The notes under the pieces: model-generated | The model's database searches: none | What the model saw: the letters and a program-made list of their open reading frames with translations, nothing else | What the model was told of the DNA's origin: nothing | Shown here: positions 34,729 through 57,590 of the stretch, piece by piece | Layout: each line of letters opens with the position of its first letter | Position numbering within the stretch: the first letter of the stretch is position 1 | Virus record (IMG/VR): IMGVR_UViG_3300023184_003134 | Span: 1-57,713 of that record | Direction: 5' to 3' (one strand) | Length of the DNA stretch: 57,713 bases | DNA from: a virus | Taxonomy: Duplodnaviria > Caudoviricetes | Made by a program: the position numbers and the translations under genes

Positions 34729-36035
34729 TAGATTAAGTAATTATTTTTAGAAAGAGTTGATTTTAATTGTGCTTTAATAGTAGTTAATTGTGTTCTATAT
34801 TGTGGTAAAATTCCACCAGCAATACTTGGTCCCATATACGTTTGATATTGTACATTATTAATAACATCTATTAATTGTCCTAATAAATCTATTAATTTGT
34901 TACCCAATATAGCCTGTTGGTCTGCATTATCTTTACCATGAAATACTTTACCACCACTACTAACCGATAATATAACATTTTTATTATTTTTAGCATTTAT
35001 TTCAATATTTCCATTTTGAGAAATAAGTTTATACCCCTTTTCAGTATCTATCGTAACAATATCATCGGTAAAGATACTAAATGTTTTTTTACTAAATAAA
35101 AATGTTTCAGCCGTTTTTGAGGAAAGAATTACTCTACCACTATTAACAACTAATTGGTCACCTATTAATTGGTCAGATGATGGATATGTATTATTTGCTT
35201 CTTTACTAACTTTTATTGTTGCTGTAAATAATGTTTTATATTTCCCTGATGTTATTTGAATTGAAGTTCCATCTTTATTTATATCTTCACTTACTACATC
35301 ATAAACTTTTTTATTTTGATTATCCGAGTTCTCACCATTACGAATTAGAATAGCAGGATATTGTGTTCCATTTTCTTTATCATCATGTAGGTAACCACTA
35401 AAACGAATTGAATGACCAAATCTACCCTGTAAAAGAGTATCTCCTTCATTTAATTGTAATTGGTGTGTTTTTAAATTACGTTTAAAATATTTACCTGCAA
35501 ACCCATTTTTAATAGTGGTGTTTGTACCTTTATTTTGATTACTATCTGAAATACCTACTGAACTAATTTCATTTAAATTATCTACACCATTATCGCCATT
35601 ACTATCTTCATTTGATTGTTTTGTATTTATTGCAGTTAATGCAACATTTGTATTAAAATTTGGTGAATTTTCTGTTGTAATTTTTTCGTAATAAGTGTTA
35701 TCTGCTAATTTATGTAATTTAACAATTTCACCAATAACGGGTAATGATAAAAATTGTCTACTAATTGGAAAAGCATGGGGTAAATTGTCTTCATTTGTTT
35801 CTGCTCCTATTCCAATATTTCTATAATAAATGGCACCATAATACAAACCATCTTTATCTATGTAGTTGTTTTTATCTATTTCTGCATACAATTTATTTTG
35901 TTCAGGTAATTTTGGTTTAATATCTGTCATATTCAATATAACAGAATGTACAATTGCTATATCAAATAAATCTGCTCTTGAATTTGGTAGTAACGCTGGT
36001 CCTTGCTGTACCGATGTAAAATAATTTTCTGGCAT
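34728..36035 (-). CDS. Baseplate hub/central spike (gp5/gpV-like)
   Basis: LPVIGEIV OB-fold motif, EGDTLLQGRFGHSIRF, beta-strand-rich C-terminus; adjacent to gp25/gp6. Confidence 0.7.
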   Translation of the reverse strand: MPENYFTSVQQGPALLPNSRADLFDIAIVHSVILNMTDIKPKLPEQNKLYAEIDKNNYIDKDGLYYGAIYYRNIGIGAETNEDNLPHAFPISRQFLSLPVIGEIVKLHKLADNTYYEKITTENSPNFNTNVALTAINTKQSNEDSNGDNGVDNLNEISSVGISDSNQNKGTNTTIKNGFAGKYFKRNLKTHQLQLNEGDTLLQGRFGHSIRFSGYLHDDKENGTQYPAILIRNGENSDNQNKKVYDVVSEDINKDGTSIQITSGKYKTLFTATIKVSKEANNTYPSSDQLIGDQLVVNSGRVILSSKTAETFLFSKKTFSIFTDDIVTIDTEKGYKLISQNGNIEINAKNNKNVILSVSSGGKVFHGKDNADQQAILGNKLIDLLGQLIDVINNVQYQTYMGPSIAGGILPQYRTQLTTIKAQLKSTLSKNNYLI

Positions 36036-36468: not shown

Positions 36469-36477
36469 TATAAATAT
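36469..36477 (-). promoter_or_regulatory. Putative late promoter ATATTTATA heading the baseplate operon
   Basis: Recurrent motif. Confidence 0.6.
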
Positions 36478-36492: not shown

Positions 36493-38190
36493 TTACTTAC
36501 TAATCAAATAGTTACCCAATACTAAGTAATCCATTTCACAATCGTAAAAGGTTTTAATAGCTGTTGTAGGGTCTAATACCATTGTTTGACCTCTAAGATT
36601 GAATGAGGTATTGAGTAGGATAGGATAACCACTTAGTTTTTCAAATTTCTTAAGTAGTGTAAAAATATGTGGATTGAAAGTAGAACGAACTGTCTGAACT
36701 CTTGCGGTTTCATCGGCGTGGGTAATAGATGGTAATCCTGCAATAAATTTATCTTTAACTTTAAATACTTGATTCATATACGGAACTTCTTGTCCTAACA
36801 TCTCAAAGTATTTACTTGCATCTTCTGCCGTAACCATTGGTGCGAAAGGTCTAAATCCTTCTCTCTTTTTAATTACTCTATTTACCTTTGGTTTAATATC
36901 TTTAATTGTTGGGTTGGCTAATATAGAACGATGTCCTAATGCTCGTTGTCCAAACTCACTACCATCTTGAAACCATCCTATAATTGCACCATCATTGATT
37001 AAACCAGCTACCTTTTCTATTAATGGATTATAATTTTCAAATCTTTTTACTTTTTCTTTTGGAACTAATTTAGCAATCGCAGATATAAAATCTGCTGCCC
37101 CATATGAAGGTCCTAAAAATGGTGTTGAATTTTCTACTCTTTTTTGTGTAGGATTAGATTGATAATACACAAATAATGCACACCCAATAGCAGAACCTGC
37201 GTCAGAGGGTGCTGGTGGAACATATACGTTCTTATAAGGAGTTTCTATTGTTATCTTACCATTTGCTAATCCATTATATGCACACCCACCACTCAAACAT
37301 AAATTGTCTTGTGGGTAATGTTTATAAAAGTTATTTAACATTTGGAAAAATAATCTTTCGTAATGTGCTTGTAATGAAAATGCAATATCCATATAAGCCG
37401 GCTCTAATTCACTTTCGGGAACTCGCGGTGCTATATTAAATAGTTCTGCCAACTTAGAAGTAAACATCCCTTTTTCTGAATAATGGAATGAAAAATACTT
37501 CATATCCAATTCTAACTTATTACCATTTAGTTTAGCAATCTTTTCAAATTGTTCTCTATATAAATCGTTTTGATTACCATACGCCACTAATCCCATTACT
37601 TTGTATTCACCACTATTTGGTTTGAATCCTAAAAATGAAGTAACACTTGCATATAATAATCCTAATGAATGTGGAAAGTAATTTCTCTCCAATGGTTGTA
37701 TGTATCTACCTTTTAAACCTAATCCTAATATTGCTGTTTCGTTTTCACCCACACCATCTACGGAAAATAAATGTGCTTCGTTAAATGGTGATGTGTAGAA
37801 CGAATATGCTAAATGTGATATGTGATGTTCTACATATTCTATTGAACCTTTATATCCTAATTGTGTACGAATAATATCTTCAATGTTATTATTCTTTCTC
37901 CAAAATATAAGTTTCTTAGTTAAAAGGATTGTTTTAGGAAAATATCTAAACCACTGTTCTTTAAATCTTTCGTATTTTTTCTTAGGGTCTTCGTACCAAA
38001 CAATTTTATCTATTTGCTTAATCTTTAATTTGTTTTGTTTTAGAATCCACTTAATGGAATTGATAGGAAATCTTTGGTCGTGCTTTTCACCTGTAAATCG
38101 TTCTTCTTCTTGTGCCGATACAACTTTGCCATCTACAATCAATGCAGCTGCTGAGTCGTGGTAAAATGCTGATATCCCTAATATTCTCAT
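36493..38190 (-). CDS. Carbamoyltransferase (NodU/CmcH/TobZ family)
   Basis: MRILGISAFYHDSAA, EERF, HHISH, DGVGE, EYKVMGL, SGGCAYN, EFGQRALGHRS, KKREGFRPFAP, LNTSFN. Start placed at the ATGA overlap at 38190. Confidence 0.95.
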   Translation of the reverse strand: MRILGISAFYHDSAAALIVDGKVVSAQEEERFTGEKHDQRFPINSIKWILKQNKLKIKQIDKIVWYEDPKKKYERFKEQWFRYFPKTILLTKKLIFWRKNNNIEDIIRTQLGYKGSIEYVEHHISHLAYSFYTSPFNEAHLFSVDGVGENETAILGLGLKGRYIQPLERNYFPHSLGLLYASVTSFLGFKPNSGEYKVMGLVAYGNQNDLYREQFEKIAKLNGNKLELDMKYFSFHYSEKGMFTSKLAELFNIAPRVPESELEPAYMDIAFSLQAHYERLFFQMLNNFYKHYPQDNLCLSGGCAYNGLANGKITIETPYKNVYVPPAPSDAGSAIGCALFVYYQSNPTQKRVENSTPFLGPSYGAADFISAIAKLVPKEKVKRFENYNPLIEKVAGLINDGAIIGWFQDGSEFGQRALGHRSILANPTIKDIKPKVNRVIKKREGFRPFAPMVTAEDASKYFEMLGQEVPYMNQVFKVKDKFIAGLPSITHADETARVQTVRSTFNPHIFTLLKKFEKLSGYPILLNTSFNLRGQTMVLDPTTAIKTFYDCEMDYLVLGNYLISK

Positions 38191-38915
38191 CTTGTAATTG
38201 TTCGTTTCCAAAACGGGTCTTTTGATTCTTGTGTTATATCACCTTCATCTAAGAATTGATAGTATAACTTCATTTGGGTTTCTTTCATCTTTGAAACAAC
38301 TTTAGTTATATAATGTGTTTTATAACCTGTCATTTCTCTAACCAATAAGTATAACGATTTTTTATTAAATGATTCTATAAATTCAGCCCGTCTAAATAAT
38401 TCTAAAACAGCATCTGCAATTTGAATATCTCGTTTCTTTGTAAATTCTTTATTCAAATTTAAATCCCAAAATTGTAACATTCTATCATTAAATGTTTTAA
38501 ATTCTTCGTTATGTGATGTTTGTTTAAAATCATTTTCCAAATCCCAAGTAACCGGCATTGTACTTAATTGTGATGTTGCTTTAAATCTTTTGTAGTTAGA
38601 ATTATTATTTAGGATAAGATAATTACGAGCTGCAATTGTAAAGTAACTAAATGCTTTACCTTTACCTTCTTCAAACTTATGTATTTTTTCTAATAAAAAA
38701 GAAACTACTTCATGTTTGATATCTTCTTTATCATCATCAAAGTAAGTAAATCCCCAAGTGTTTAATACGTTTTCGGATAATTTATAAAATGAATAATGGA
38801 TGTGTTCGGTGTATAATTTATTTCTCTCTCTATTATCATCCGATTTGTTGTATGCGATAATAGCTGCTTCAGTTTGTTCGGTGAAGTATCTGGTATCTTT
38901 TTTCTTTCTACCCAT
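38187..38915 (-). CDS. Phage sigma-factor-like protein
   Basis: KIHKFEEGKGKAFSYFTIAARN resembles sigma70 region 2 and T4 gp55. Confidence 0.7.
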   Translation of the reverse strand: MGRKKKDTRYFTEQTEAAIIAYNKSDDNRERNKLYTEHIHYSFYKLSENVLNTWGFTYFDDDKEDIKHEVVSFLLEKIHKFEEGKGKAFSYFTIAARNYLILNNNSNYKRFKATSQLSTMPVTWDLENDFKQTSHNEEFKTFNDRMLQFWDLNLNKEFTKKRDIQIADAVLELFRRAEFIESFNKKSLYLLVREMTGYKTHYITKVVSKMKETQMKLYYQFLDEGDITQESKDPFWKRTITR

Positions 38916-44047: not shown

Positions 44048-44884
44048 TTATAAATATTTGTTATTTAAAAATTCTACCATTCCATTCGCCCATAGTTGGT
44101 GAGCTTGAAATCCAGGGTGTCCATCATTTATTACATCAACCCCAATTTCATCTAAAATTCTTGTTTTAGTTTTTTCACTTAATGTAACAATATTATTTTC
44201 AATGTCACCATTAATCTGTAATTTTAAAATTCTATCATTCCTAAAATTTGGAATAAATTTATTAAAATCAATTTGGTTAATAAAGTAAGTATAATTGCCG
44301 GATATATAATATTCTATATTATGTAATTCAAAAAATGAACATAATCCTAAATATTTTTTAGCAGTTTCTAACTCCCATTGAATTGGATTTATAAAACTAT
44401 TAGAATATTGTTTAATTATAGTAATAATAGTATCTTTATATAATTCATCTTTTATATAACCCTCATTAATCCAATTGAATGTTGTGTGTACACTTTCTAC
44501 TTTTCCATTACTATCATAATTAGTATTTGCTACCAAATATTTGTTATACTTGTTTGAAAATACATCTAATCTATTTATAGCATCCGGTAATTCTAGTATG
44601 AATAGTGTTTTCTTAATTTCATCTAATTTATTTTTTAGAATGTAATCATACACTTTTCTAATAATTCTATCTGTACCACCACCACTCTTTGCATCATTTA
44701 TTATTTTAATTCCCATTTGTTTTCCAACTAATGTAGGATAGCAAACATCTACTTGTGATTTATATTCAAATCCATATTGTTTTTTATATGCTTCTCTAAC
44801 GTGTTCTTTCTTTGTTTCAAATCCACCACCTTCGGTAAACGAGCAACCATTAAAATATATTTGATTAAATTTATCTTGTATCAT
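44048..44884 (-). CDS. SGNH/GDSL-like protein
   Basis: FNGCSFTEG, SGGG, DGHPG...H..WA. Confidence 0.7.
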   Translation of the reverse strand: MIQDKFNQIYFNGCSFTEGGGFETKKEHVREAYKKQYGFEYKSQVDVCYPTLVGKQMGIKIINDAKSGGGTDRIIRKVYDYILKNKLDEIKKTLFILELPDAINRLDVFSNKYNKYLVANTNYDSNGKVESVHTTFNWINEGYIKDELYKDTIITIIKQYSNSFINPIQWELETAKKYLGLCSFFELHNIEYYISGNYTYFINQIDFNKFIPNFRNDRILKLQINGDIENNIVTLSEKTKTRILDEIGVDVINDGHPGFQAHQLWANGMVEFLNNKYL

Positions 44885-45774
44885 TACTTAAAAAATTCTG
44901 CTAATTTTGTTTCTTGTTCTAATTCATCCGGTGTAACATAATCTGGAATTTCATATGTTCCTGGTTTTCTAAACACCAATAAGTATTCATGTACCTTTGA
45001 TGTGTATCTATTTGCTGCCGTTTTACCAATTTGTAATGCTGCGAATGGTGAAATGTTTTCTAGTATAACTATATCGTGCTGATTAAATCCGTTCTTTTTG
45101 AAAGAATTGATAACATCACCGTGAAAGTTTAAGAATTTACCTTTACTTCTAATATCACCTACAACCCAACAAGCAAACCCACCAGTCTTCAATACTCTAA
45201 AACAATTACCAATACATAAATCAATTTTGTTCATAAACATTTCATAGTTAGGCTCATCTGCTAATTGATTAGGTACTGATTCGTATCTTTCTAAATCAAA
45301 GTAAGGTGGACAGGTCATAATCAAATCTGCATACTTATCTTCAATTTCTTCCATTAGTGTTCCATCACCATTTATAACAGGTGTTTTCATACCCATACCA
45401 GTAAAGTGGTCATGTATTCGTTCATGTGTTTTAGGAGAAATTTCAAACCCTGTATACTCTCTACCTAACTTTGTTGCAACATAAGCGCGGGTCACTCTAC
45501 CTGCAAATGGGTCTACTACCTTACTACCTTTTAAACTCCAAAATTTATATATTTGTTCTGCTAATCCGGCGTGAAATTCAGAGAAAGTGTAACCGGGTAA
45601 ATATTCCGATGTGTCACTTCGTCTTTGTTCATCTAAACCATCATTTAAATAGGCATCGTGCCACTTTAGCTTAGATTCTTTGGTAGGTCTATTAATTGAT
45701 AGAGGTAGGAATCCAAATTGGTCTACAACCTTTATATCGGTTCTAAGAGGTAATATTTGTGAGTATTCTGCCAT
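44884..45774 (-). CDS. DNA amino-methyltransferase (m4C/m6A)
   Basis: DPFAG precedes TCPPY; HEYLLVFRK. Confidence 0.88.
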   Translation of the reverse strand: MAEYSQILPLRTDIKVVDQFGFLPLSINRPTKESKLKWHDAYLNDGLDEQRRSDTSEYLPGYTFSEFHAGLAEQIYKFWSLKGSKVVDPFAGRVTRAYVATKLGREYTGFEISPKTHERIHDHFTGMGMKTPVINGDGTLMEEIEDKYADLIMTCPPYFDLERYESVPNQLADEPNYEMFMNKIDLCIGNCFRVLKTGGFACWVVGDIRSKGKFLNFHGDVINSFKKNGFNQHDIVILENISPFAALQIGKTAANRYTSKVHEYLLVFRKPGTYEIPDYVTPDELEQETKLAEFFK

Positions 45775-45829: not shown

Positions 45830-46219
45830 TTATCCAACTTTAATGGATAGTTTCTTTGGCTTTCTTTCCTCAAACTTTGGAATAGATATATAAAGAACGC
45901 CGTTTGTAATTGTGGCTTCCGCCTTTGCACCATCCCAATCTTTACCAATGCTTAGTGTTTCATCAATGTTCTGCACTAATTCACTTTCAATTTTAGAAGG
46001 AGTATTATCGTTTACTTTAGATTTAACTCTAATCTTATCAGAGTCATAATCCAATGTTAATGTTTCTACTGAATGACCTGGAACTAATAATCCAATTTGT
46101 AATGTGTCATCCGTAATGTCAATTGCTAATCTTTGTGCTGTTTCTTTGTAACGTCTTGTTGCTGGTTTAGAAACTTCAAAGAAATCTTCAAATAATTTGT
46201 TGTAATCTACTAAATACAT
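45830..46219 (-). CDS. Small heat-shock protein (Hsp20/alpha-crystallin)
   Basis: VPG, ATITNGVLYISIPK, C-terminal L-x-I. Confidence 0.85.
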   Translation of the reverse strand: MYLVDYNKLFEDFFEVSKPATRRYKETAQRLAIDITDDTLQIGLLVPGHSVETLTLDYDSDKIRVKSKVNDNTPSKIESELVQNIDETLSIGKDWDGAKAEATITNGVLYISIPKFEERKPKKLSIKVG

Positions 46220-46296: not shown

Positions 46297-47004
46297 TTAG
46301 AATTGTCCAACGTTTAATGAAAATTTGTCATTTTTTTGTGACTTATCTTGTAATTTTAATTCTTCTTGTCTTTCTATGATTGTACTCATAAAATCTCCCC
46401 AATGTAAAATATATTGAATAGAAGAACGTAATGTATTTTTAACATTAAATGTTTTTAAATACTTTTCATTATCTTCATCATATAATCCATCGGTAAGTTT
46501 AATGCCAAAATATTCATTTTCAGTATATTGAATACCATAGTAGTTCAATGTAAAGAATGTTCTATCGGTAATTGTCATAAATGGTATTTCATCATTTCTT
46601 TTATAGTAATCCATTCTATTATCTATTTCCCATTTATTTGTATTATGCACATAATGTACTTGTCCTTTAATACCTAATTTACCTAAATCATGATGTAATG
46701 CTGCAAACATTAATTCTTCATCTTCAAAATCAATAGTACCACCCTGTGCAACAAATAAATCTTTCATTTTTAATGCATTCTTACACACATTAAAAATATG
46801 GTCAATATATCCCCCATCGTAACAATTGTGATATAATAATCTACCACTTGCCGGAGACATTGCTAAATTCATACCTAATTCGTTTTCAGAATACATATGA
46901 AGTAATTTTTCAAGTCTATCACCGGTGAAATACTTTTTAATAATAGCAATAAACTTATCGTAATTTGCTTTAATTTCCTCTGCTGTCTTTTTTCTTTGTG
47001 TCAT
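46297..47004 (-). CDS. HD-domain phosphohydrolase (YhaM-like)
   Basis: PAS...YH...GG...H, HHDLGK, HWGD. Confidence 0.85.
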   Translation of the reverse strand: MTQRKKTAEEIKANYDKFIAIIKKYFTGDRLEKLLHMYSENELGMNLAMSPASGRLLYHNCYDGGYIDHIFNVCKNALKMKDLFVAQGGTIDFEDEELMFAALHHDLGKLGIKGQVHYVHNTNKWEIDNRMDYYKRNDEIPFMTITDRTFFTLNYYGIQYTENEYFGIKLTDGLYDEDNEKYLKTFNVKNTLRSSIQYILHWGDFMSTIIERQEELKLQDKSQKNDKFSLNVGQF

Positions 47005-47007: not shown

Positions 47008-47646
47008 TTATAGTTTAAAAAATTTATCTGCGTTATTTATTTTATTTATTCTATTTTCTGCAATCTTACACGTAACTTCATGTATTTCACTACCTATGTA
47101 CTTTCTATTATTTTCAATACATACCACTGCCGTAGTACCACTACCTATAAATGGGTCAAATACTATTTCATTTTTCTTTGTATATCCATTGATAAATTCT
47201 TTTACAATATTAGCCGAAAAATTGTAGGTATATTCCGGTGTTGCTGGTACAAATACTTCATACCAAACATCCGGTAAATTTACTACTTTTGAAACATCTT
47301 TTTTAAATGTTAAAATAAAAGTATAACCTGGTCTATATAAATCAATTTTATATGTTTTAACCCATATTTTCTGTGATATTAATCTCCATCCTAATTCATT
47401 CATTAGGGTACACATAATAGTATGTTTCGGAATAATAGTACCTTCTGCTTTTCTATCGGAAACAAATATAGTGACGGTATCATTCTTTGGATTAAATTTT
47501 TCAAACCTTTCTTTTAAGAAATGAATATAAGGTTGTATATTTTTAGTATCTACTCCAATTTCATCAAAATCTGGTGGAGATGTAATAATGTAATCATAAT
47601 CTAAGTTACGATTAAGTGTATCTAAACAATCTTCGTTGTAAATCAT
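47008..47646 (-). CDS. DNA amino-methyltransferase, beta-type motif order
   Basis: TSPPD followed by DPFIGSGTT and YIGSEI. Confidence 0.85.
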   Translation of the reverse strand: MIYNEDCLDTLNRNLDYDYIITSPPDFDEIGVDTKNIQPYIHFLKERFEKFNPKNDTVTIFVSDRKAEGTIIPKHTIMCTLMNELGWRLISQKIWVKTYKIDLYRPGYTFILTFKKDVSKVVNLPDVWYEVFVPATPEYTYNFSANIVKEFINGYTKKNEIVFDPFIGSGTTAVVCIENNRKYIGSEIHEVTCKIAENRINKINNADKFFKL

Positions 47647-48633: not shown

Positions 48634-49413
48634 TTATTTTAGAATATTTGTTGTAATTAATTGATTATTAACAAGATATGTATATAATTTTTTTGAATAT
48701 TTTTTATTATGTATGTATCCTGGATGTGCTCCATCAACTCCATTATCAACAAATGGTGCTGAATAATCTCCATCAAATCTATTATTATCATTATAATCAT
48801 TAGTTGCATACCATCCATTCCAAACCCAATTACATTTTTTTGATTCTAAAAATAATTTTATTAACGTATGGTTTTTATACCAATTTATAAAATTGTTTGA
48901 TTTATTTAATAAAGTAAGATGTGCATTATGTTCATTTACACCATTTTCGGTTTCTTTAAAATACCCCCAACTTTTATGGTGGAATGGTTCTATACCACCT
49001 TCATTGGTATAAAATTCTCGTCTATGTGATTCGGTATACATAATTAAAACTAAATCAGGTTTTACTAAATCGTAATATGTCATCAAACAACGGGTGATAT
49101 AATCATTACTTCTACCACCACATCCGAAATTTAAATCAACTCCATTTGGTATTAATTTACACAATTGATGTGACCATGTTTCGTTATCATTTACACCAAC
49201 TCCCTCAGTAATAGAACAACCTAATGACATTACCTTAAACCCTTCTTTTTTTATACTAGCTCCTCTAAACCCCAATTCATTATAAGTGTAAGTGCAATTT
49301 CCTGTAATATCTGAACCCGAACCTTTATATGTTTGATTAACTCTTTCACTTAAATTGTTTCTAAACGATGAAATTTCAAATCCCGCAGGATTCCAATATT
49401 CTAATGCCTTCAT
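48634..49413 (-). CDS. SGNH/GDSL-like esterase or acyltransferase
   Basis: NELGFR, SLGCSITEG, NFGCGG, DGAHPG. Confidence 0.75.
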   Translation of the reverse strand: MKALEYWNPAGFEISSFRNNLSERVNQTYKGSGSDITGNCTYTYNELGFRGASIKKEGFKVMSLGCSITEGVGVNDNETWSHQLCKLIPNGVDLNFGCGGRSNDYITRCLMTYYDLVKPDLVLIMYTESHRREFYTNEGGIEPFHHKSWGYFKETENGVNEHNAHLTLLNKSNNFINWYKNHTLIKLFLESKKCNWVWNGWYATNDYNDNNRFDGDYSAPFVDNGVDGAHPGYIHNKKYSKKLYTYLVNNQLITTNILK

Positions 49414-49913
49414 ATTAATTTATTTCTTTCTATTTTTATATGTTCGTTTTCTAAAAACCATAATAAAGAATACCTTTCACCTTCTAAAATTGGTGTTATT
49501 TCGTGGTCTATTCTTACATCAAATAAATATGTATTCCCAATAACTTTATCTAATATAATTTCATTTGGGTTGTATAATTTAAAATCACCTCCTATAAAAT
49601 TATCGTTTAATAATACACCAATTGCGTATAATCTTTCATCTCTAACATCATTATGCTTACCAAACCAATTACCTTTTGCAAATTTATGAAAATGTATTTC
49701 TTCTTTATTTTTTATAATTTGTAAACCAGTTTCGGATTCAAAAAAATATTTTAATTTATCAAATAACCATTTATTTTGTAATGAATAATCAATTGGTTGG
49801 GAATGGTATTTTCTATTTTCCATATTAAAGTTTGCAATATTTTCATTTGCATTCCATACAATAGATTCACATTCTACTTTATTAAATAATACTCTTTGGC
49901 TTAATAATTTCAT
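49410..49913 (-). CDS. 2OG-Fe(II) oxygenase (P4H-like)
   Basis: KHND, GGDF, HEITP..EGERYSL. Confidence 0.88.
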   Translation of the reverse strand: MKLLSQRVLFNKVECESIVWNANENIANFNMENRKYHSQPIDYSLQNKWLFDKLKYFFESETGLQIIKNKEEIHFHKFAKGNWFGKHNDVRDERLYAIGVLLNDNFIGGDFKLYNPNEIILDKVIGNTYLFDVRIDHEITPILEGERYSLLWFLENEHIKIERNKLI

Positions 49914-50439
49914 TACTTAAGTTTTGTTTTTCAACAAATAACATTAATGTTATTCTATTTCCTTTGGTTATCATATCAACTGAATGTGGTGATGACGATT
50001 CAAAAATATAAACTTTTCCAGTTTCAAAATTTATTATAGTTTCATTATTACTACTATATATTTTAAAATCACCACCTATAAAATCTTCTTTTGAATTTAA
50101 TTGAACTCCAATTGTATATATTCTTTCTGCACCATTTTTTATGTGGTCATCATGTTTTATAAAATAATCACCTTCTTTGTAATTTCTATATGCTGTAAAT
50201 ATATTATTGTTAATTATTTTTTTAATATTTGGTATGCCATTTACCCAATTGACTATTCTTTCCGCAAACCATATATTTTCATTGTTCCAAATTAAAGTAT
50301 TTGATAACATTTTACCTCCTATTTTAGTTTCTTTAGTATTATAATCAACAGATATTTCTCTATTGTGCCATTGATTTGCGTATGATATAATTTTATCACA
50401 TTCTTCTTTTGTGAATAAAATTTCTTCTTTTAATAACAT
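49882..50439 (-). CDS. 2OG-Fe(II) oxygenase (P4H-like)
   Basis: KHDD, GGDF, HSV...GNRITL. Confidence 0.88.
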   Translation of the reverse strand: MLLKEEILFTKEECDKIISYANQWHNREISVDYNTKETKIGGKMLSNTLIWNNENIWFAERIVNWVNGIPNIKKIINNNIFTAYRNYKEGDYFIKHDDHIKNGAERIYTIGVQLNSKEDFIGGDFKIYSSNNETIINFETGKVYIFESSSPHSVDMITKGNRITLMLFVEKQNLSNEIIKPKSII

Positions 50440-50444
50440 TTTTT

Positions 50445-50561
50445 CTAAATTAATTTATTAACTTTCGTATTAACCCTATATTTTTGCCCAACGGGAAAGT
50501 TTTTATTTTCTAAATCAGTTATGTCCAAATAATCTAATATTTTTTGAAATTCATTAATCAT
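50445..50561 (-). pseudogene. 38-aa ORF, probable 3' remnant of a sulfotransferase-like gene
   Basis: Hand-translated MINEFQKILDYLDITDLENKNFPVGQKYRVNTKVNKLI; fills the gap and carries the cluster C-terminal tag. Confidence 0.45.
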
Positions 50562-50562
50562 A

Positions 50563-51147
50563 TTATATTAATTTTTTTTCGTTTGTTATTGGGTTATTTT
50601 GTCTTTGTTTATGTTTTGGGTGTAAAATTTCATAATCCAAAGAAATTGATTTATCAATTAAACCCGTACCATAGTATATGTTTTCGTAGGTGTCAATTGG
50701 GACATTTAATAAATTTGATAATTTAATCATATATTCGTTTACCATTTTAATTTTAATCTCCAACTTGTCGGCAAGATTATCATATAAGTGATTGTGGTAA
50801 AGATATTTAGCTCTTTCATCCATTCCCGAATTTTGTACCGATAATGATTCTGCATTTTCTTTTGTGTTTTCTCTTATGATTAATATAACTTTATCAAATT
50901 GTTTACTAAAATCTACATAAAAATCAACACAATTTTGCAAATGCTCTTCTGTAACCGTTTCAGTTTTGAATTTATCGTCAATTTGACTTAATTGAGTTTT
51001 AAACACTATATTTTCAATTTCAAACTCAGTTATTCCCCTTCTAAATGGTTCATATATATAAGAAAGATTATTAGCAGCTGCTATCGATTTCATCAATGAA
51101 CTTGTTCCAGACCTTGGTATTCCAATTATTAAAAAATTATTTTTCAT
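50563..51147 (-). CDS. Sulfotransferase-like protein (P-loop, PAPS-binding)
   Basis: GIPRSGTSSL (5'-PSB), YEPF, R.N......S (3'-PB), TYENIY. ATG start at MKNNF. Confidence 0.8.
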   Translation of the reverse strand: MKNNFLIIGIPRSGTSSLMKSIAAANNLSYIYEPFRRGITEFEIENIVFKTQLSQIDDKFKTETVTEEHLQNCVDFYVDFSKQFDKVILIIRENTKENAESLSVQNSGMDERAKYLYHNHLYDNLADKLEIKIKMVNEYMIKLSNLLNVPIDTYENIYYGTGLIDKSISLDYEILHPKHKQRQNNPITNEKKLI

Positions 51148-51183
51148 AGTTTTTAAAATTAAGTGTGGTATATCCACATTTGT

Positions 51184-51750
51184 TTATATTAATGTTTTTT
51201 TAAAGTTTTCTATTGGTGTCAACCTAAACCAATTAACCAATGAATATCGTGTTCCTGTTGTTATGGGTTTTACTCTATGTGTTAAATGTGAATAAAATAT
51301 AAATAAATTACCCAATCCTTTTTCTAAAGTTATTTCATTATTATCTTTGTCTTTTATTTGTAATTCTCCACCGGTATACTCATCATTTAATTGTATTACC
51401 ATTGAGCAATACCTTTTAGAAAAAACTTCGTCCTCATTCCCACTATCCTCATGCCAATTATAATAACCGTCTTTTGTATATTCTGTAAATTGAAACATAT
51501 TATTTGTAAAATCAATAACGTATCCTTTCACATTCACCTCTTTTTTAAAAATATTAATTAATTTTTCATTTAAATTTGGAAAATTTAAACTATAATCATA
51601 GAAAAAAACATTTGATTTTCTACTTTTTAAATCCAACATGTTAGGTCCACCCACCCCTGCTGGCTTTAATTCTTTAGTTAATGAAAATTGTAATAAATCT
51701 TCACATTCTTTTTTTGATAGAAGATTTGGTATAGTAGTATAGTTTATCAT
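51184..51750 (-). CDS. 2OG-Fe(II) oxygenase (P4H/PKHD-like)
   Basis: RKS, YNWHED, YTGGEL, HRVKP...GTRYSLVNW. Confidence 0.92.
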   Translation of the reverse strand: MINYTTIPNLLSKKECEDLLQFSLTKELKPAGVGGPNMLDLKSRKSNVFFYDYSLNFPNLNEKLINIFKKEVNVKGYVIDFTNNMFQFTEYTKDGYYNWHEDSGNEDEVFSKRYCSMVIQLNDEYTGGELQIKDKDNNEITLEKGLGNLFIFYSHLTHRVKPITTGTRYSLVNWFRLTPIENFKKTLI

Positions 51751-51759
51751 TTATTAAAA

Positions 51760-52287
51760 TTATATTAAAGATTTTTTATTTATTGAAATTTCTTTCCAAT
51801 GTAAAAATAATTGAATAACAGATTCGTTGTCGGCACATATTAATTCATCTCTCCAATGTGTAATTTTATCCGAATTTATTATAAGTACACCATCTCCAAT
51901 ATTTGGTGTGTGTGAAATTTCAATATTGTTATATTCGGCATTAAGTGACCATCCTTGTTTAATGTTTGAAAATAAACAAATGCTTAATGTAATACCAATA
52001 TCGTCCCTATCTACGTGTTTTTTTAAAACTGAACCATTTTTATATTCTCTAACAAATGAATTAACATTTTTAATTTCTTTATTATGATTTAACTCAGTAA
52101 TAATTGGTTTTATAGTATTTAATAATTTATCAAATTCACCATAACCTCTGAAACCATACGTTGTTTTATAATTAAGTAATGTATCATATTTATCCGAATT
52201 TATTTTTATTTTTTGTAGTCTACGAAAATCAGAAACTAACAGTTCACAATCTTCAGCTGAAACTAAATTATTTAATAAATGTATCAT
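51760..52287 (-). CDS. 2OG-Fe(II) oxygenase (phage type)
   Basis: REY..GSVLKKHVDR, GDGV, HWRDEL, QLFLHW. Confidence 0.82.
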   Translation of the reverse strand: MIHLLNNLVSAEDCELLVSDFRRLQKIKINSDKYDTLLNYKTTYGFRGYGEFDKLLNTIKPIITELNHNKEIKNVNSFVREYKNGSVLKKHVDRDDIGITLSICLFSNIKQGWSLNAEYNNIEISHTPNIGDGVLIINSDKITHWRDELICADNESVIQLFLHWKEISINKKSLI

Positions 52288-52985
52288 ATGATATTATTTG
52301 ATTTGATAAATCTTTTTTCGAATAATTCCCAATACCAGTTCCTTAATTCATCATCTATTATAATTTTATTTTCTTGTTTTACGAAATTATTATGTAACAT
52401 ATTATTTGGATTTATATTTGATATGAGTATGTTTTCTTTATATTTTTTATAAAAAAATTCTTCAACTTTATATAATTCATTAATACTAAATTCATATGTA
52501 CATTTTTCATTGTTTTTCCAAAATTGTTGTGAAATCATTAAATTGGATATTAAACCAAAATTTGGCGCTGTTTTAGGTGCACCTTTATAATCTTTTACGA
52601 TTATAAAATTATTTTTTTCTGTTGTTTCATAATAATGCATATTATTTACAAATGTTTTATCAAATGTTTTATACAAAAAATTATTATCAATATCTTTCCA
52701 ATTTATAATTGGTGTATATCCATCTTTATCGATTGATAACCAAATTGTTTGTAATGAACTAATCCATCGTTCCAATGGGTCTCTGGTTATACAAATTGTT
52801 TCTTTTTTTCCAAAATATTCATACAATTCATCAAGTTTAATATGTAAATGATTATATGGGTCTTTGTAATACTGCCTATGTTTTTCAATTTTTAAATTAG
52901 AATTTAATAATGCGTTTTCTATTGAACTACTTGCACATTTTGGAACCGATACCCATATCAAATCATTATTAATCAATAATCCCAT
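52284..52985 (-). CDS. Sulfotransferase family 2-like protein
   Basis: SVPKCASSSI and RDPLERWIS. Confidence 0.85.
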   Translation of the reverse strand: MGLLINNDLIWVSVPKCASSSIENALLNSNLKIEKHRQYYKDPYNHLHIKLDELYEYFGKKETICITRDPLERWISSLQTIWLSIDKDGYTPIINWKDIDNNFLYKTFDKTFVNNMHYYETTEKNNFIIVKDYKGAPKTAPNFGLISNLMISQQFWKNNEKCTYEFSINELYKVEEFFYKKYKENILISNINPNNMLHNNFVKQENKIIIDDELRNWYWELFEKRFIKSNNII

Positions 52986-53482
52986 TATAATAAACTTTTA
53001 TTTGTTTTTTGTTTTTTTTGTAAAAATGTATATAAACTAAATCTAACTCCGGATATCATAGGTTCAACTTTATGTAATGTTTTACTATGAATTTTAACAC
53101 TTAATCCTGTTTTTGGTGTTATTGAAAATTCTAAATCATTATCGTAATGAATTAATTTTCCACCTTCAAAATTTTCATTTAAATATGTAACAAAACTTAA
53201 ATCACCACTATCTTTATGTTTACTATTGTGTATCTGTCTATCTGGTTTTATTATGTTTATAGCAGTTTCAATTAATTCATATTCACCATTAGATGTTATT
53301 ATTTTATAGTATTCTTTTAATTTGTTGTCATCTACAAATATAGAATCAAACCACAAATTTTCTCCTAAATTATTTTTTTGATTATAGGTTGTACGCCACT
53401 TCCATTTTGTTTCGTCGTATATTAAATTGTTAATATACTTCAATTCTTCCTGTGTCAATAGATTTTGTAATATTTCTACCAT
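52985..53482 (-). CDS. 2OG-Fe(II) oxygenase (P4H-like)
   Basis: KHKD, YLNENFEGG, HKVEP...GVRFSL. Confidence 0.88.
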   Translation of the reverse strand: MVEILQNLLTQEELKYINNLIYDETKWKWRTTYNQKNNLGENLWFDSIFVDDNKLKEYYKIITSNGEYELIETAINIIKPDRQIHNSKHKDSGDLSFVTYLNENFEGGKLIHYDNDLEFSITPKTGLSVKIHSKTLHKVEPMISGVRFSLYTFLQKKQKTNKSLL

Positions 53483-54525
53483 TATATTAAAGTTTTATTA
53501 GTATTATCAATAAATTCATATAAGTTATGAAAAACATTTTGGTTTTTCCATATTTTATTAAAATTTATTTTAAACAATTCATGTTCCGGATGTTCCGTAT
53601 CCCATACTTGTTTTAATTTAAACTCCCCTTCTGAAAACGTCCCCCAATTAGTTATTTTACCAAAAAATACATTTACTCGTTTACCAAAAATGGAATACAT
53701 TAAATTATAAAACATTTCCATTTCGGTATAATTCGTATCTTGTACCACAAACGATGTTTTTATTGATGTTAATGTTTGTATTGTATTAATAAATTTTAAA
53801 TTACTTAGTAAATTTTCCCAATTACCACCTAATCTTGTTTTATTTTCATACGTATACTTTGTCCCCGCGTCAATACTTATTTCACAAGTGTGAACATATT
53901 TATGTACGTTTGGCATACTATTCCACATTTCTTTATTCCACATACTTGCGTTTGTGTGTAGGTGTATATTTTGTAATTTGGGATATTTTTCAGGGTTAAA
54001 GTTTCTTAAATAATTTCTAAAGCTAACCGAAACAAATGGGTCACCTGTACCCGTAATATATAAAGTTTTTACATTTTGTGAATAATATGTGTCAATTTCG
54101 TCTATTGTTTTTTCAATACGTTTTAATCCTTCACTACTTTCAACAATTAAATCTACTCTACAAGATGGACATTTGTAATTGCAAGTTCTATCAAAATTCA
54201 TTACCAAATAGTCAGGTGTATTATTATCTATAATTGGAGTTGTGTAGTGTGAATTTATTTTTAAATGTATTGGGCCTGATGGAATCCCATAGTTTACCAA
54301 TTTACTTAAATAGGGACAAAGTTCTTTATCACAATATTTAAATGAACCATCTATTATAGAATTTCTAATATCAATAATTGGTGCACTATTGTATATGTCC
54401 TTTAAAGGAATTTCACCAATCTCTATTTTATTGGGTAACCAAGATGGACAACAAACAAAACAAACATTATTATGTATTTCCAATGAATTAAATGGAACAC
54501 CACATATGTAATTTTTTAAATTCAT
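53482..54525 (-). CDS. Radical SAM protein with N-terminal SPASM/twitch-like Cys cluster
   Basis: ICGVPF...CFVCC...YCDKELCP; CNYKCPSC; GTGDP; HTNA; ISIDA. Confidence 0.9.
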   Translation of the reverse strand: MNLKNYICGVPFNSLEIHNNVCFVCCPSWLPNKIEIGEIPLKDIYNSAPIIDIRNSIIDGSFKYCDKELCPYLSKLVNYGIPSGPIHLKINSHYTTPIIDNNTPDYLVMNFDRTCNYKCPSCRVDLIVESSEGLKRIEKTIDEIDTYYSQNVKTLYITGTGDPFVSVSFRNYLRNFNPEKYPKLQNIHLHTNASMWNKEMWNSMPNVHKYVHTCEISIDAGTKYTYENKTRLGGNWENLLSNLKFINTIQTLTSIKTSFVVQDTNYTEMEMFYNLMYSIFGKRVNVFFGKITNWGTFSEGEFKLKQVWDTEHPEHELFKINFNKIWKNQNVFHNLYEFIDNTNKTLI

Positions 54526-54540
54526 AGTGTGTTATGTTAA

Positions 54541-54828
54541 TTATAACAATGATTTAATAGATTTAGATTTAAAAGTTTGATATGTGGTATCAACCTCTTC
54601 CCATTTTTTCAATGGACAATCGTTAAAATCATTTGAAAATATCTTTTTAGATATAGGACAACCACATTCACCACATACTACCCCTAATTTTAATTTATTT
54701 GTTAATACTTTTCTAGACGGACAAGATTCACAAATTTCATTTCGTTTTTCTGCGAGTAATTTTTGTGATGGATTGGGGTTATGCGCAATAATCCAGGCAC
54801 TATAAATCTTTTTAAAATTTAAATCCAT
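54541..54828 (-). CDS. Small Cys-rich metal-binding protein
   Basis: R..ICESCP...CGECGCP...K......CPLKKW. Confidence 0.75.
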   Translation of the reverse strand: MDLNFKKIYSAWIIAHNPNPSQKLLAEKRNEICESCPSRKVLTNKLKLGVVCGECGCPISKKIFSNDFNDCPLKKWEEVDTTYQTFKSKSIKSLL

Positions 54829-54846
54829 ATAACTTATTTTTTATAA

Positions 54847-54924
54847 TTAAGAATTTGCGGCGATAATCAATGCTCCTATTTGTGTCATTGTAGTATCAAT
54901 TGTTTGTTTTTCTATTAATGTCAT
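54847..54924 (-). CDS. 25-aa small ORF
   Basis: Hand-translated MTLIEKQTIDTTMTQIGALIIAANS; fills the gap between two cluster genes with about 20-nt AT-rich spacers. Confidence 0.55.
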   Translation of the reverse strand: MTLIEKQTIDTTMTQIGALIIAANS

Positions 54925-54944
54925 TATATATTATTTTTTAACTT

Positions 54945-56477
54945 TTATTTAGGGGTATATGGAGTACAACCTGGTCTACAAATACAAAGGGGTCTACCTG
55001 CACAAGCTAAGGTAGTATTACCCGGCCCGTCACAATATAATCCTTTTGGACAGGTGGACTGTTCACATGGACCGGTGTTAGAACTACAACCCACGTTGTG
55101 TTCAATTGTTACAAATGATGTATTGTTGGATGTTTGTGTTAAGAACATATGTGCCCTTTCAACACTAATAACCCATCCATCAAATATTTGTTTTGTTGTT
55201 GTTATAGATGCAACTTCTTTAATTATTGGATTGAAATTACCATCCGTTGTGTCTAATAATATTATACTGTCACCAATTTGAATTGTATCTTCGTTGCCGG
55301 TTTCATGTGATAATGACACAAATTTAATGTTATCATTTCTCACAATTAAATAATTTGAAGTATTAGTATCTTCCCAAAAAGTATTATCGGTAAAATCAAT
55401 TCTAACATAATTAACAATTTGACTAACTTTTTGTTTATTAGTGACTGCGTTTGTTGAATATGTTGTACCAGTTAAAAATGTATTATATGATATACCAAAA
55501 TCAGCGATTTCCGATTCCATATCTACTTCATTTGGATTTGGAATGTCTATTGTTTTTATTATATCTCCAACTTGTAATTCTAATGCAGTTTTAAATGAAC
55601 CGTCCGCCATTTCTACTTTATCAGTATCTAACAATTTTGGCGCGACTAATGAGTATTCGTTGCTAATATATCTATTTTTAAATTCGGTATTCAATTCAAA
55701 TGTTATGGTATCATATGTTACATCACTATCTAATCTTCCAGTTGGTAAATATGTATAACCACCCAGAGAAATACTTTCTAAATTTGGAGGGAATAATAGA
55801 TTCATTCCTCTAAATATTTGAATATGGTCTTGATATAATTTATCTATATTCAAATGAAATTCCATTAGAAAATGACCATTGTCTATATTTGATAATATTG
55901 TATTTAATTCCGATTCATTTGATACTTTATAAAATTTAGGATAATTTGTTTTATCATATCCAGGATTAACCGCTTTTAAAATAAAGTTAGGATGAACACC
56001 ATTATCGTTTATAGATGTGATATGATTAACTAAATCACCATTACTATCTTTATATGCAAATTGTGAGGCAAATGTAGAATCTTTTATTAAATTTAAAAAA
56101 TTAACTTTATCTTTACAATATGTGTCATCCACCAATGCGGTAGTATCGTATGCACTTCTAATAATCAAAGTTTCATCGTTGTCCTCAACAAATGGAATTG
56201 TGATTGAAGATGCTCCGGTTTCGTGGTGTTCAAATGAAATGCCTAAAGTAGTGGTTAACGTTTTTAATTTTTTATTAAACTTTAAAACTGAGCCAATGTA
56301 CACTACTTTAGTAAAAGCTTTTTCAGTTATAAAATTAGAAAGTTCCGTAAAATCTAATGCTGTTTCATTATCTTCAACTGTTAGATTTACCCAACCTATA
56401 TTTGTGTTAAGTTCTATTGGTACTAAATTACCATCTTTATTGTATACGAAGTCCGACCCGATTAATACTGTTCTCAT
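54945..56477 (-). CDS. Circularly permuted ATP-grasp domain + Hint domain + C-terminal Cys-rich peptide
   Basis: GSDF....DG...IELNTN, FILKA, FLMEF (ATP-grasp); KVEMADGSFK...LQVGD, IQIGD, WVISVERAHMF, EHN (Hint); then 49 aa with 8 Cys. Confidence 0.8.
   Translation of the reverse strand: MRTVLIGSDFVYNKDGNLVPIELNTNIGWVNLTVEDNETALDFTELSNFITEKAFTKVVYIGSVLKFNKKLKTLTTTLGISFEHHETGASSITIPFVEDNDETLIIRSAYDTTALVDDTYCKDKVNFLNLIKDSTFASQFAYKDSNGDLVNHITSINDNGVHPNFILKAVNPGYDKTNYPKFYKVSNESELNTILSNIDNGHFLMEFHLNIDKLYQDHIQIFRGMNLLFPPNLESISLGGYTYLPTGRLDSDVTYDTITFELNTEFKNRYISNEYSLVAPKLLDTDKVEMADGSFKTALELQVGDIIKTIDIPNPNEVDMESEIADFGISYNTFLTGTTYSTNAVTNKQKVSQIVNYVRIDFTDNTFWEDTNTSNYLIVRNDNIKFVSLSHETGNEDTIQIGDSIILLDTTDGNFNPIIKEVASITTTKQIFDGWVISVERAHMFLTQTSNNTSFVTIEHNVGCSSNTGPCEQSTCPKGLYCDGPGNTTLACAGRPLCICRPGCTPYTPK
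55095..55637 (-). other. Hint (intein-like) domain, aa 281-461, predicted C-terminal cleavage only
   Basis: Block A position 1 is Lys, block B His is absent, block F His and terminal His-Asn are retained, and +1 is Val. Confidence 0.75.
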
Positions 56478-56494
56478 ATTATTTTGTTATTTCT

Positions 56495-56503
56495 TATAAA
56501 TAT
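56495..56503 (-). promoter_or_regulatory. Putative late promoter ATATTTATA heading the Hint/tailoring cluster
   Basis: Same motif and same 17-nt spacing as before the tail fibre gene. Confidence 0.6.
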
Positions 56504-56897: not shown

Positions 56898-56909
56898 ATA
56901 ATATAAATA

Positions 56910-57590
56910 TTAAGAACGTTGAACATCTCTTAAATAATCATCTAAATTGGTTACTCTTTGTGATAAAGGTAAAACTACGTCGGTAGAAACAGGTACAAAA
57001 TCAGATGGTAATGTTTGATATGTTCCGCTAATTCTTACATTAGTTTCATCAAATAAAAATAATATTTGTTTGATAATATTTTCTTCATTTAATTGAGTAT
57101 CATCCATATTATTATAAAATTGTAAATCTAATGCAGTGACTCCGGCTAAACCTAATTTACTATTTAATGTTTGTGATGGTGTTGCTGTAACTTGAATTGA
57201 ACCACTTGTTGAACTCCCTATTAGTGTACCGGTATAGGTAATTGAATTGGCTGTAATCTCTGCCCCATATTTACTACCAATGTAATTAATAGTTTTAGAT
57301 AAATCCATTTCTATTGTAATTAAATCTTTTATAGTATAGTATGGATTGTTTTCTTTATATGCTGTAACTAATGTATCAAATAAATGTTGGGGAATATATG
57401 TATTACTCCCCAACTTTACTGCGAAATTAATAGATTGAGATGGACAATTGAATACTTTGTATGTTGCCGTATTAGGGTCAATCGTTTTTAGTTCTCTAAA
57501 GTTTTTATCAAATACTCCTTTAAATAAAATTGTATTAGGATTTACTCTACTATAAGAACCATAATCATTTGTTACTTCTCTACTAAACAT
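56910..57590 (-). CDS. Hypothetical protein
   Basis: 226-aa ATG ORF. Confidence 0.7.
   Translation of the reverse strand: MFSREVTNDYGSYSRVNPNTILFKGVFDKNFRELKTIDPNTATYKVFNCPSQSINFAVKLGSNTYIPQHLFDTLVTAYKENNPYYTIKDLITIEMDLSKTINYIGSKYGAEITANSITYTGTLIGSSTSGSIQVTATPSQTLNSKLGLAGVTALDLQFYNNMDDTQLNEENIIKQILFLFDETNVRISGTYQTLPSDFVPVSTDVVLPLSQRVTNLDDYLRDVQRS

Follow-up and report, generated by a model that had tools for sequence, protein, structure and literature searches.

The stretch of DNA analysed here, referred to as the window, is a 57.7-kb virus record of IMG/VR (IMGVR_UViG_3300023184_003134, positions 1 to 57,713), and its minus strand carries a cluster of thirteen open reading frames (ORFs) headed by the gene for a 510-residue protein (54945-56477), here called the lead protein. 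We conclude that this gene and its neighbours constitute a real, apparently undescribed self-processing precursor system. The lead protein joins an ATP-grasp fold, a Hint domain and a hypervariable, cysteine-rich tail in a single chain, and judged from sequence comparison three features of the system appear to be undescribed, namely this ATP-grasp-Hint-peptide fusion, two small constant partners and a C-terminal tag common to the enzymes of the cluster. The best explanation that combines these features, to which we assign a probability of about one half, is a self-processing precursor whose tethered peptide is tailored by tagged enzymes before release. Self-cleavage of the precursor stands well above even odds and tailoring below them; a relationship to peptides made on ribosomes and altered after translation (RiPPs) in this latter respect is plausible. 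The initial annotation of this DNA, made from the letters alone, had read the cluster as a RiPP-like operon with just this type of lead gene; all thirteen ORFs lie on the minus strand, and their order and coordinates agree with it. Counts of partners and enzymes given below refer to 82 IMG/VR loci with a lead homologue, many of them clipped by contig ends; these loci represent one syntenic position in related phages, and the counts are not independent events. A lineage about 30% identical to that of the window was fetched as a second comparison set and is termed the distant lineage.

No Pfam, PHROG or NCBIfam model matches the lead protein. Its AlphaFold2 model, built with 69 homologues, reached a predicted local distance difference test score (pLDDT) of 88 and a predicted template modelling score (pTM) of 0.85, with residues 464-510 below a pLDDT of 50. 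The N-terminal part, residues 1-277 (55647-56477), matches the glutathione-synthetase-like structure 5oeu (Z 8.7, 214 residues aligned, root-mean-square deviation 5.1) and the glutathionylspermidine synthetase GspS (2io7, Z 8.7), as well as YgiC, 3k1t and 7uka (8.4), the ligase Cp1B (9cjn, 7.3) and RimK, LysX/ArgX and TTLL enzymes (5.5-6.6, with RimK and LysX/ArgX at 5.5-5.7). Every non-Hint match of the lead protein down to rank 48 is an ATP-grasp enzyme, and Foldseek returned glutathione synthetase with an E value of 7e-6. Among 69 diverse homologues, E22, N24, R107, D117 and R223 are present in all 69, K168 in 68/69 and D9 in 67/67. The spacing D9...E22-x-N24 is that of the magnesium ligands in ATP-grasp enzymes, and residues 9-33 align weakly to residues 274-297 of biotin carboxylase (E 0.78); it is on this spacing and this weak alignment that we tentatively equate D9, E22, N24, R107, K168 and R223 with catalytic residues. 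Because these positions and D117 are invariant or nearly so, the domain looks catalytically competent. The N-terminal location of the magnesium-ligand motif further suggests that the domain is circularly permuted, in the way known for the eukaryotic glutathione synthetase.

Residues 278-461 (55095-55646) adopt a Hint fold in the model, with matches to Tetrahymena BIL2 (6tmm, Z 15.1), to many inteins (12-14.7) and to hedgehog (13.8), and at the level of sequence profiles the region matches the KlbA intein (E 2e-8). Residue 1 of the inteins aligns to residue 281 of the lead protein and the last intein asparagine to N461. Column 281 holds no cysteine in any of 69 sequences (H 23, K 18, I 6, L 5, T 3, S 3, and others), and at the end of the domain H460 is conserved in 67/69 and N461 in 68/69. 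The first cysteine of the tail is found at position +2 or +3 in 42/67 cases and at +1 in 1/67; in the window, residue +1 is a valine. A TxxH motif was not found in Hint block B by eye. A splicing intein was considered and rejected, in that the fold and the terminal His-Asn are present but a nucleophile is lacking at position 1 as well as at +1; with both nucleophiles missing, splicing and N-terminal thioester formation are therefore excluded. Asparagine cyclisation in inteins requires neither of them. The lead Hint domain is thus possibly, and at most, a C-terminal-cleaving one, with the cut expected between N461 and V462. Two central elements of the earlier reading, the composition of the lead protein from ATP-grasp, Hint and a variable cysteine peptide and its release by the Hint domain, accordingly hold up well, the former by the model, the fold and profile matches and the cysteine-rich tail, the latter in the restricted sense that the domain, by its retained His-Asn and its missing N-terminal nucleophile, appears suited to C-terminal cleavage only.

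Behind the Hint domain follows the hypervariable tail of 49 residues with eight cysteines (residues 462-510, 54948-55094), delimited by the model and the alignments and presumed to be the released peptide. Beyond His-Asn, the sequences of the family share nothing but cysteines; this place is taken either by a cysteine-rich tail, about 20-70 residues long, or by a larger cargo. For 58 IMG/VR relatives the tails measure 23-62 residues (median 40) and consist of 18% Cys, 11% Gly, 10% Pro, 10% Ser, 7.5% Tyr and 0.2% His, and their median identity is 28%, against 52% for the body of the protein. The number of cysteines is 4, 6, 8, 10 or 12 and never odd, in 57/57 distinct tails and in 62/62 short-tailed representatives (binomial p 4e-19). 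As these even counts are not all multiples of four and histidine is almost absent, they argue for full pairing in disulfides rather than for zinc sites or for links from cysteine to other residues, and the tail encoded in the window would hold four disulfides. Sactipeptide or lanthipeptide chemistry is unlikely in view of the invariably even count, which likewise speaks for disulfides over thioethers made by a radical SAM enzyme.

Other members of the family carry a second self-cleaving module straight after the cysteine-rich stretch, either a canonical Hint domain that starts with Cys (P0055, P0073) or a Peptidase_S74 module (P0085, P0086). In P0073, P0093, P0096, P0102 and P0112 the cysteine-rich peptide is placed between a C-terminal-cleaving and a Cys-starting Hint domain, and such a pair of putative autoprocessing sites flanking the peptide is the best comparative evidence for its excision. 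The P0055 gene itself (L084 3178-5094) has 7 residues between the His-Asn of the first Hint and a full second Hint (Cys1...His-Asn), with no cysteine-rich peptide. Further members bear long BACON-domain cargoes, in proteins of up to 1667 residues, and P0060 shows a weak PT-HINT match. An exhaustive HMMER scan yielded 281 representative clusters of the family, 86 of them below 1e-30. The nearest ESM-Atlas clusters are labelled 'hypothetical protein' and are 96-100% viral, and the family looks virus-only. In a cultured phage collection the lead gene matched nothing, at either the DNA or the protein level. P0064 was sought in viral contigs and P0070 in genome contigs, and neither was found there.

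Two small ORFs accompany the lead gene with greater constancy than any enzyme. A micro-ORF of 24-30 codons adjoins it in 82/82 loci (79 recognised by pattern, 2 by eye, 1 located upstream), with the consensus ..TEKQTINxIMTQIGxLIVxxNS; in the window it comprises 25 residues (MTLIEKQTIDTTMTQIGALIIAANS, 54847-54924). In the distant lineage its counterpart, which has 38 residues and shares the hydrophobic pattern, comes after the lead gene in 22/23 loci. The second partner is a 95-residue, C-terminally tagged protein (54541-54828) with six invariant cysteines, C33, C36, C52, C55, C57 and C71, a homologue of which occurs in 80/82 loci and adjoins the lead gene in 27/27 distant-lineage loci. Relatives of this six-Cys protein form 877 clusters, all annotated 'hypothetical protein', and the cultured phage collection holds no match to it. 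Its confident model has no fold relative (best Z 3.8, no Foldseek match at E <= 0.001), and sequence profiles gave weak zinc-ribbon matches only (E 0.2-0.6). A predicted complex of the lead and the six-Cys protein was unsupported (score 0.01), and nothing is concluded from it. Because both partners are kept beside the lead gene in two lineages about 30% identical, the core of the system is, by its conservation, the precursor together with the micro-protein and the six-Cys protein. The reading of the cluster as an operon had listed both small ORFs but missed that the 25-residue ORF and the cysteine-rich protein, and not the enzymes, are the constant partners. Either of them is unlikely to be an immunity protein, since both are conserved while the tail is hypervariable.

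The third feature is a short C-terminal tag, roughly K-(K/N)-(T/S)-(L/I)-(I/L)-COOH, that ends every enzyme family of the cluster and also the six-Cys protein. Its pattern is a basic segment with a pair of hydrophobic residues behind it, as in KKTLI, NKSLL or RNKLI. In the window, 9/9 cluster genes but 3/52 others end in two hydrophobic residues; across the IMG/VR loci the tag is found in 296/324 versus 202/883 proteins and in the distant lineage in 72/77 versus 39/217. Note that the homologues in these counts are not independent and fall into eleven homology groups with about five unrelated folds. In the SGNH family the window copy lacks the tag, and 29/38 homologues have it. The codons of the tag and its distance to the next start codon vary, and the signal therefore sits in the protein. 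In the complete 335,630-bp genome of a relative, 8 of the 15 top-scoring ORFs (of 397) are contiguous just after the lead gene. Homologues of the 2-oxoglutarate (2OG) oxygenases in cyanophages end right after the catalytic fold and are untagged (3/3 examined), and the carbamoyltransferases of the phages studied here are untagged as well (0/19). Since these proteins and the products of neighbouring genes lack it, the tag is, as far as the comparison reaches, an appended and lineage-specific element that marks one functional set tied to the lead gene via the six-Cys protein. The complete relative also has a UDP-glucose dehydrogenase with a tag-like end; orthologues do not retain this end, and it was put down to chance. 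The sole non-cluster gene of the window with a tag score >=4 is 34728-36035 (435 residues, no family match), which ends in NNYLI and sits two genes downstream of a carbamoyltransferase gene (36493-38211). Another shared C-terminus occurs at 247-5421 of locus L096, upstream of the lead gene, where about 12 tandem paralogues of 98-144 residues all end in EG(I/V)KYKL(S/T)KV.

The enzymes that follow in the window are a variable set. At least one cluster enzyme family is present in 76/82 loci, which bears out the expectation that lead homologues with variable C-terminal peptides head enzyme arrays; at least one 2OG oxygenase is found in 69 loci, a Sulfotransfer_2-like protein in 56, SGNH in 44 and radical SAM in 41, and of two P-loop families one occurs in 23 and the other in 14. 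The content differs greatly even among close relatives. The putative radical SAM protein (53482-54525, tag NKTLI) has a cysteine-rich N-terminal region and the motif CNYKCPSC (CxxxCxxC). This motif favours the original call, but both profile matches remain below their curated cut-offs, Pfam with 2.1e-5 and 25.2 bits against 29.5, and the NCBIfam N-terminal-twitch family N_Twi_rSAM with 4e-13 and 49 bits against 170. Between loci whose lead proteins share only about 50% identity, this protein is conserved at 81-82%. Five genes had been called 2OG oxygenases, and these calls can be maintained. Three of them score above the cut-off of 2OG-FeII_Oxy_3 (PF13640; 27 bits) and are prolyl-4-hydroxylase (P4H)-type enzymes by Pfam: 52985-53482 (tag NKSLL, 30.9 bits), 51184-51750 (tag KKTLI, 5.9e-17, 62.9 bits; phrog_61 2e-30) and 49882-50439 (end PKSII, 6.7e-10, 40.2 bits). 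A fourth of the same type, 49410-49913 (end RNKLI, HxD...H...R), lies just below it at 25.1 bits, and the divergent fifth, 51760-52287 (tag KKSLI), is recognised by PHROG only (phrog_2954 5e-15, phrog_3531) and has no Pfam match. All five sequences show HxD and the distal His; the 2OG-binding Arg is clear in four but not in 51760-52287. As called, the last two 2OG genes overlap by 32 nt (49882-49913), and the downstream one may use a later ATG.

Of the two sulfotransferases in the initial annotation, the first (52284-52985, end SNNII) is a sulfotransferase-like protein that matches Sulfotransfer_2 with 23.8 bits against a cut-off of 22 and also phrog_3347. The second (50563-51177, tag EKKLI) shows a P-loop (PRSGT) together with an R...S motif, but no family match, and its link to sulfotransferases is one of motifs only. 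Its best profile match in the PDB is deoxyguanosine kinase (E 0.023), it is homologous to the family of the adjacent remnant (hhalign 99%), and with the Sulfotransfer_2-like family it shares the P-loop only (41%, 28 columns). Comparison of the P-loop families with PDB sequences gave no convincing relative, and the true start of the gene is probably the ATG at 51147. The 38-residue ORF at 50445-50561 was rightly seen as a remnant; it matches the C-terminal 36 residues of a 185-residue P-loop family (56% identity over 36 residues to L008 12639-13196, E 7e-12), and this is the P-loop family found in 23 loci, the one of 50563-51177 being that found in 14. The last gene of the cluster (48634-49413) was called an SGNH hydrolase. 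Speaking for this are G65, S67, T69, G71, N95, G97, G100 and H230, invariant in the family, and the nearly invariant D227, among them the conserved Ser67, Gly97/100, Asp227 and His230; family support, on the other hand, comes down to a weak match to the GDSL structure 4rsh in blocks I-II only (E 0.0033), and no Pfam, PHROG or NCBIfam model matches.

Whether these enzymes tailor the peptide is the point on which the evidence is divided. Enzymes of prolyl-hydroxylase-like and sulfotransferase-like type are a fitting match for tails with much Pro, Tyr and Ser, and the number of 2OG genes correlates with the proline content of the tail (n=45, Spearman 0.53-0.57 with raw p 2e-4 to 5e-5), with none of the other tail residues tested tracking the 2OG count at that level. 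As independent evidence this link had to be dropped, because it is carried by clades: among eight phylogenetically independent pairs about 2.4 agree, 0.1 are opposite and 5.5 do not differ (sign test not significant, median p 0.5), and in the distant lineage tails contain no more than 1-2 prolines at loci that have 4-6 2OG genes. Several other observations likewise weigh against tailoring. The 2OG family occurs in 358 cultured-phage records without the lead gene, and as these phages have neither lead gene nor six-Cys protein, the enzymes must have other substrates there. At some loci the lead gene and its two small partners stand without any recognised enzyme, as in L095-L097 of the distant lineage, whose flanks span at least 6 kb, and L001 has none but one weak sulfotransferase-like match (E 1.7e-5). 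Radical SAM is found in 0/27 distant-lineage loci. Sulfotransfer_2 and SGNH families commonly act on glycans, a carbamoyltransferase gene is located near the cluster, and the BACON cargoes in the lead family are not RiPP-like. Cyanophage clusters of carbamoyltransferase and 2OG dioxygenase genes are read, in a passage of PMC7824862, as serving polysaccharide decoration or metabolite synthesis. No family of the RiPP recognition element (RRE) type is among the Pfam matches. The claim that the enzymes modify the peptide is thus not supported by the comparisons, given the failure of the proline link under phylogenetic control and the relatives without recognised enzymes. In L105 of the distant lineage the sole recognised enzyme is SGNH. 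Two lead paralogues that differ in their tails (L001 and L053) lie about 38 kb from each other on one 211-kb IMG/VR contig, one adjoined by the six-Cys gene and the weak sulfotransferase-like match, the other by the full enzyme set; enzymes acting in trans would explain a genome with two lead paralogues of which one is enzyme-poor.

The same observations lend weight to an account that accepts the precursor as real but treats the enzymes as cargo of a hyperplastic accessory region with no relation to it, modifying glycans, the host envelope or virion proteins, while the tag serves localisation, packaging or turnover. The wide distribution of P4H-like 2OG genes in aquatic phages, the fluctuating enzyme content between close relatives, the enzyme-free loci, the Nol-like carbamoyltransferase in the same genomes, the PMC7824862 passage and the fate of the proline correlation would all be expected from it. 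It is less easily reconciled with the tag, which is also borne by the six-Cys protein, the constant neighbour of the lead gene, marks genes that cluster directly beside the lead gene in the complete genome, and is missing from the carbamoyltransferases and not conserved on UDP-glucose dehydrogenase. We regard this account as unlikely, though it deserves serious consideration.

An alternative of a different kind places the lead protein among polymorphic Hint-released effectors or virion adhesins. Its N-terminal module would deliver interchangeable cargo, that is cysteine-rich knots, BACON domains or S74-chaperoned fibre-type modules, which decorate the particle or bind the host surface, and the enzymes would modify virion components. 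Variable cargo behind a conserved Hint domain, the PT-HINT match of P0060 and tails that are hypervariable, as is usual in receptor-binding or conflict proteins, are in keeping with it, as are BACON domains and Peptidase_S74 (Pfam 'Chaperone of endosialidase') within the family; S74 chaperones are typical of tail fibres. The lead gene also shares the promoter-like motif ATATTTATA, described below, with the large genes 9273-14048 and 22819-27684, for which no family was matched. An apparently active ATP-grasp enzyme, however, is not a known trafficking or structural module, tails of 23-62 residues are too small for fibre domains, and no immunity gene co-varies with the hypervariable tail, the micro-ORF and the six-Cys protein being conserved, so that we consider this reading rather improbable. 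Very little credit, finally, goes to the view that the Hint domain is a degenerate, non-cleaving scaffold and the protein an uncut ATP-grasp enzyme with a cysteine-rich metal-binding or redox appendage. The missing N-terminal nucleophile, the lack of a visible TxxH in block B and the lack of a nucleophile at +1 are what one would expect of such a scaffold, but His-Asn is kept in 67-68/69 sequences even though the rest of the Hint domain diverges, tails with 6 and 10 cysteines and 0.2% His do not fit four-Cys zinc sites, and the variants described above have another self-cleaving module precisely on the far side of the tail.

In the self-processing precursor that we favour, the lead gene would encode an active-looking ATP-grasp ligase, a Hint domain ending in His-Asn and a peptide of about 5 kDa with 49 residues and eight cysteines. 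Cyclisation of Asn461 would cut the chain behind the Hint domain and free the peptide, so that a separate leader peptidase would not be needed. Through the tag, the enzymes would be gathered at one shared hub, for which the precursor is the simplest candidate, and while the peptide is still attached they would hydroxylate or sulfate it or modify it in other ways. For the ATP-grasp domain, ligation at a peptide or protein carboxylate would be the likeliest chemistry. The even cysteine count suggests that the released peptide has all its cysteines paired as disulfides, in the manner of a knottin- or conotoxin-like mini-protein, and as such it would act outside the reducing cytoplasm, probably after lysis. 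A bolder version, to which we give small odds, sees in the system a new viral class of RiPPs with a catalytic 'leader', tag-docked enzymes and an ATP-grasp domain that closes a head-to-tail ring, the product being a knotted cyclic peptide released by lysis as a weapon or signal. The ATP-grasp domain would activate the C-terminal carboxylate of the peptide, and the N-terminus freed by Hint cleavage would close the ring; in the two-Hint variants the second Hint domain would do so through a thioester. The ATP-grasp-Hint protein would here replace both leader peptide and leader peptidase, and recognition would be reversed with respect to known RiPPs, in that a five-residue C-terminal tag docks each enzyme on the precursor complex. 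The product would be disulfide-knotted, hydroxylated and sulfated.

The cluster is preceded by the intergenic, promoter-like motif ATATTTATA on the coding strand (56495-56503, minus strand), at a distance of 18 nt upstream from the start codon of the lead gene. The window contains ten copies in one orientation, nine of which sit 5-23 nt upstream of start codons (14066-14074, 19687-19695, 20801-20809, 22783-22791, 27689-27697, 36469-36477, 44049-44057, 56495-56503 and 56902-56910); the start codons of the two largest genes of the window are among those preceded by it. The copy number itself is at chance level (10 vs 10.0 expected), and the evidence lies in position and orientation. Within the cluster there is no copy. 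The motif is probably a promoter or initiation signal of the phage's own, distinct from the T4 late promoter: the T4-type late promoter TATAAATA occurs 17 times in the window against 28 expected, 5 of these on the coding strand, and differs from the recurring motif. The 'late-type motif' that the initial annotation placed at the head of the cluster is therefore a real element but not a T4 late promoter on the coding strand. As to its remark that no internal terminator was seen, a weak hairpin is found at 51164-51178, and terminator-like sites in the region, numbering 3 against 2.6 expected, do not exceed chance.

The window, with a G+C content of about 28% and an estimated completeness of 27%, has nearly all of its genes on the minus strand. 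Among its further products are T4-type baseplate wedge proteins, a nuclease that fuses SbcC-like and SbcD-like parts, and a carbamoyltransferase of Nol-like type; its relatives are contigs of up to 335 kb with one rated complete (335,630 bp), and lake and river metagenomes of eight coded studies hold DNA near-identical to it. From the baseplate genes, the size of the relatives and the origin of the near-identical DNA we conclude that the window is part of a freshwater jumbo myovirus. The nuclease ORF (14734-17880, 1048 residues) is of the fused gp47/gp46 type, with an SbcD-like part at residues 5-300 and an SbcC-like part at 348-1047. Two giant ORFs, 9273-14048 (1591 residues) and 22819-27684 (1621 residues), have no PHROG match at 1e-5. 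Directly downstream of the cluster lie two N6/N4 DNA methylase genes (44884-45774, 47008-47646) and an Hsp20 gene (45830-46219), and the latter forms, together with a gene for 235 residues (46297-47004), the conserved downstream edge of the variable region in related phages.

To our knowledge, phages have not been known as makers of disulfide-rich hypervariable peptides, and a large family, with 281 precursor clusters and 877 clusters of the six-Cys partner, stands unannotated in freshwater viromes. Peptide release would be self-contained and would proceed without a protease, the ATP-grasp enzyme is fused to its probable substrate, and the short tag common to enzymes of about five unrelated folds may represent a new recruitment or targeting signal. 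The hypervariable tails amount to a natural library of small, stable scaffolds, and the system bears on what lies behind the large number of 2OG oxygenase genes in aquatic phages. We found no description of an ATP-grasp-Hint-Cys-peptide protein in open-access text, and none of such a cluster in the open-access literature on phage RiPPs and on 2OG, sulfotransferase and radical SAM proteins in phage, in agreement with the initial annotation, to which no described system of this organisation was known.

Compared to known systems, the closest analogy in fold is with bacterial intein-like (BIL) domains and the PT-HINT domains of polymorphic toxins, with which the lead protein shares the Hint fold and an autoproteolysis expected to free variable C-terminal cargo. 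Here, however, the N-terminal partner is an ATP-grasp enzyme where those systems have a domain for secretion or trafficking, most of the cargoes are cysteine-rich peptides of 23-62 residues, and the family looks virus-only, without a co-varying immunity gene and without a nucleophile at position 1. The two-Hint members recall the two-sided release logic of Tetrahymena BUBL proteins, the source of 6tmm, in which a payload is flanked by BIL domains. BUBL proteins conjugate their payload to a target; the payload of the present family is a cysteine-rich peptide and not a ubiquitin-like domain, and the window protein has the first Hint only. The 2OG arrays of cyanophages and pelagiphages contain the same P4H-like family at about 30% identity, but those examined (3/3) are untagged, and the phage collection in which they are found lacks lead and six-Cys homologues.

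With RiPPs the system has in common a ribosomal precursor with a variable core, neighboured by candidate tailoring enzymes in the 76/82 loci. Borosins such as OphMA are RiPP precursors fused to their own modifying enzyme, and like them the lead protein has, in one polypeptide, a catalytic domain N-terminal to a short core that would later be released; it differs in having an ATP-grasp domain in place of a methyltransferase and a built-in Hint that would take the place of a separate peptidase, and in being phage-encoded with additional tagged enzymes. Graspetides of the microviridin type likewise combine an ATP-grasp ligase with a ribosomal peptide, and their ligase Cp1B is among the fold matches, but ligase and peptide form one chain here and there is no leader peptide. 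Graspetide cross-links need Asp or Glu side chains; some tails have neither (L002), and acidic residues are unlinked to gene content, so that membership in this class was rejected. The peptide itself resembles conotoxins, knottins and cyclotides in its hypervariable loops on a fixed, even cysteine framework and in its richness in Pro, Tyr, Ser and Gly, and hydroxyproline and sulfotyrosine, the classic conotoxin modifications, match the enzyme types encoded in the cluster. Those peptides are eukaryotic, secreted and cut by proteases, whereas the one in the window is viral and predicted to be self-cleaving. By analogy, the lead system thus appears to be kin to known Hint-released cargo as well as to RiPP-like clusters.

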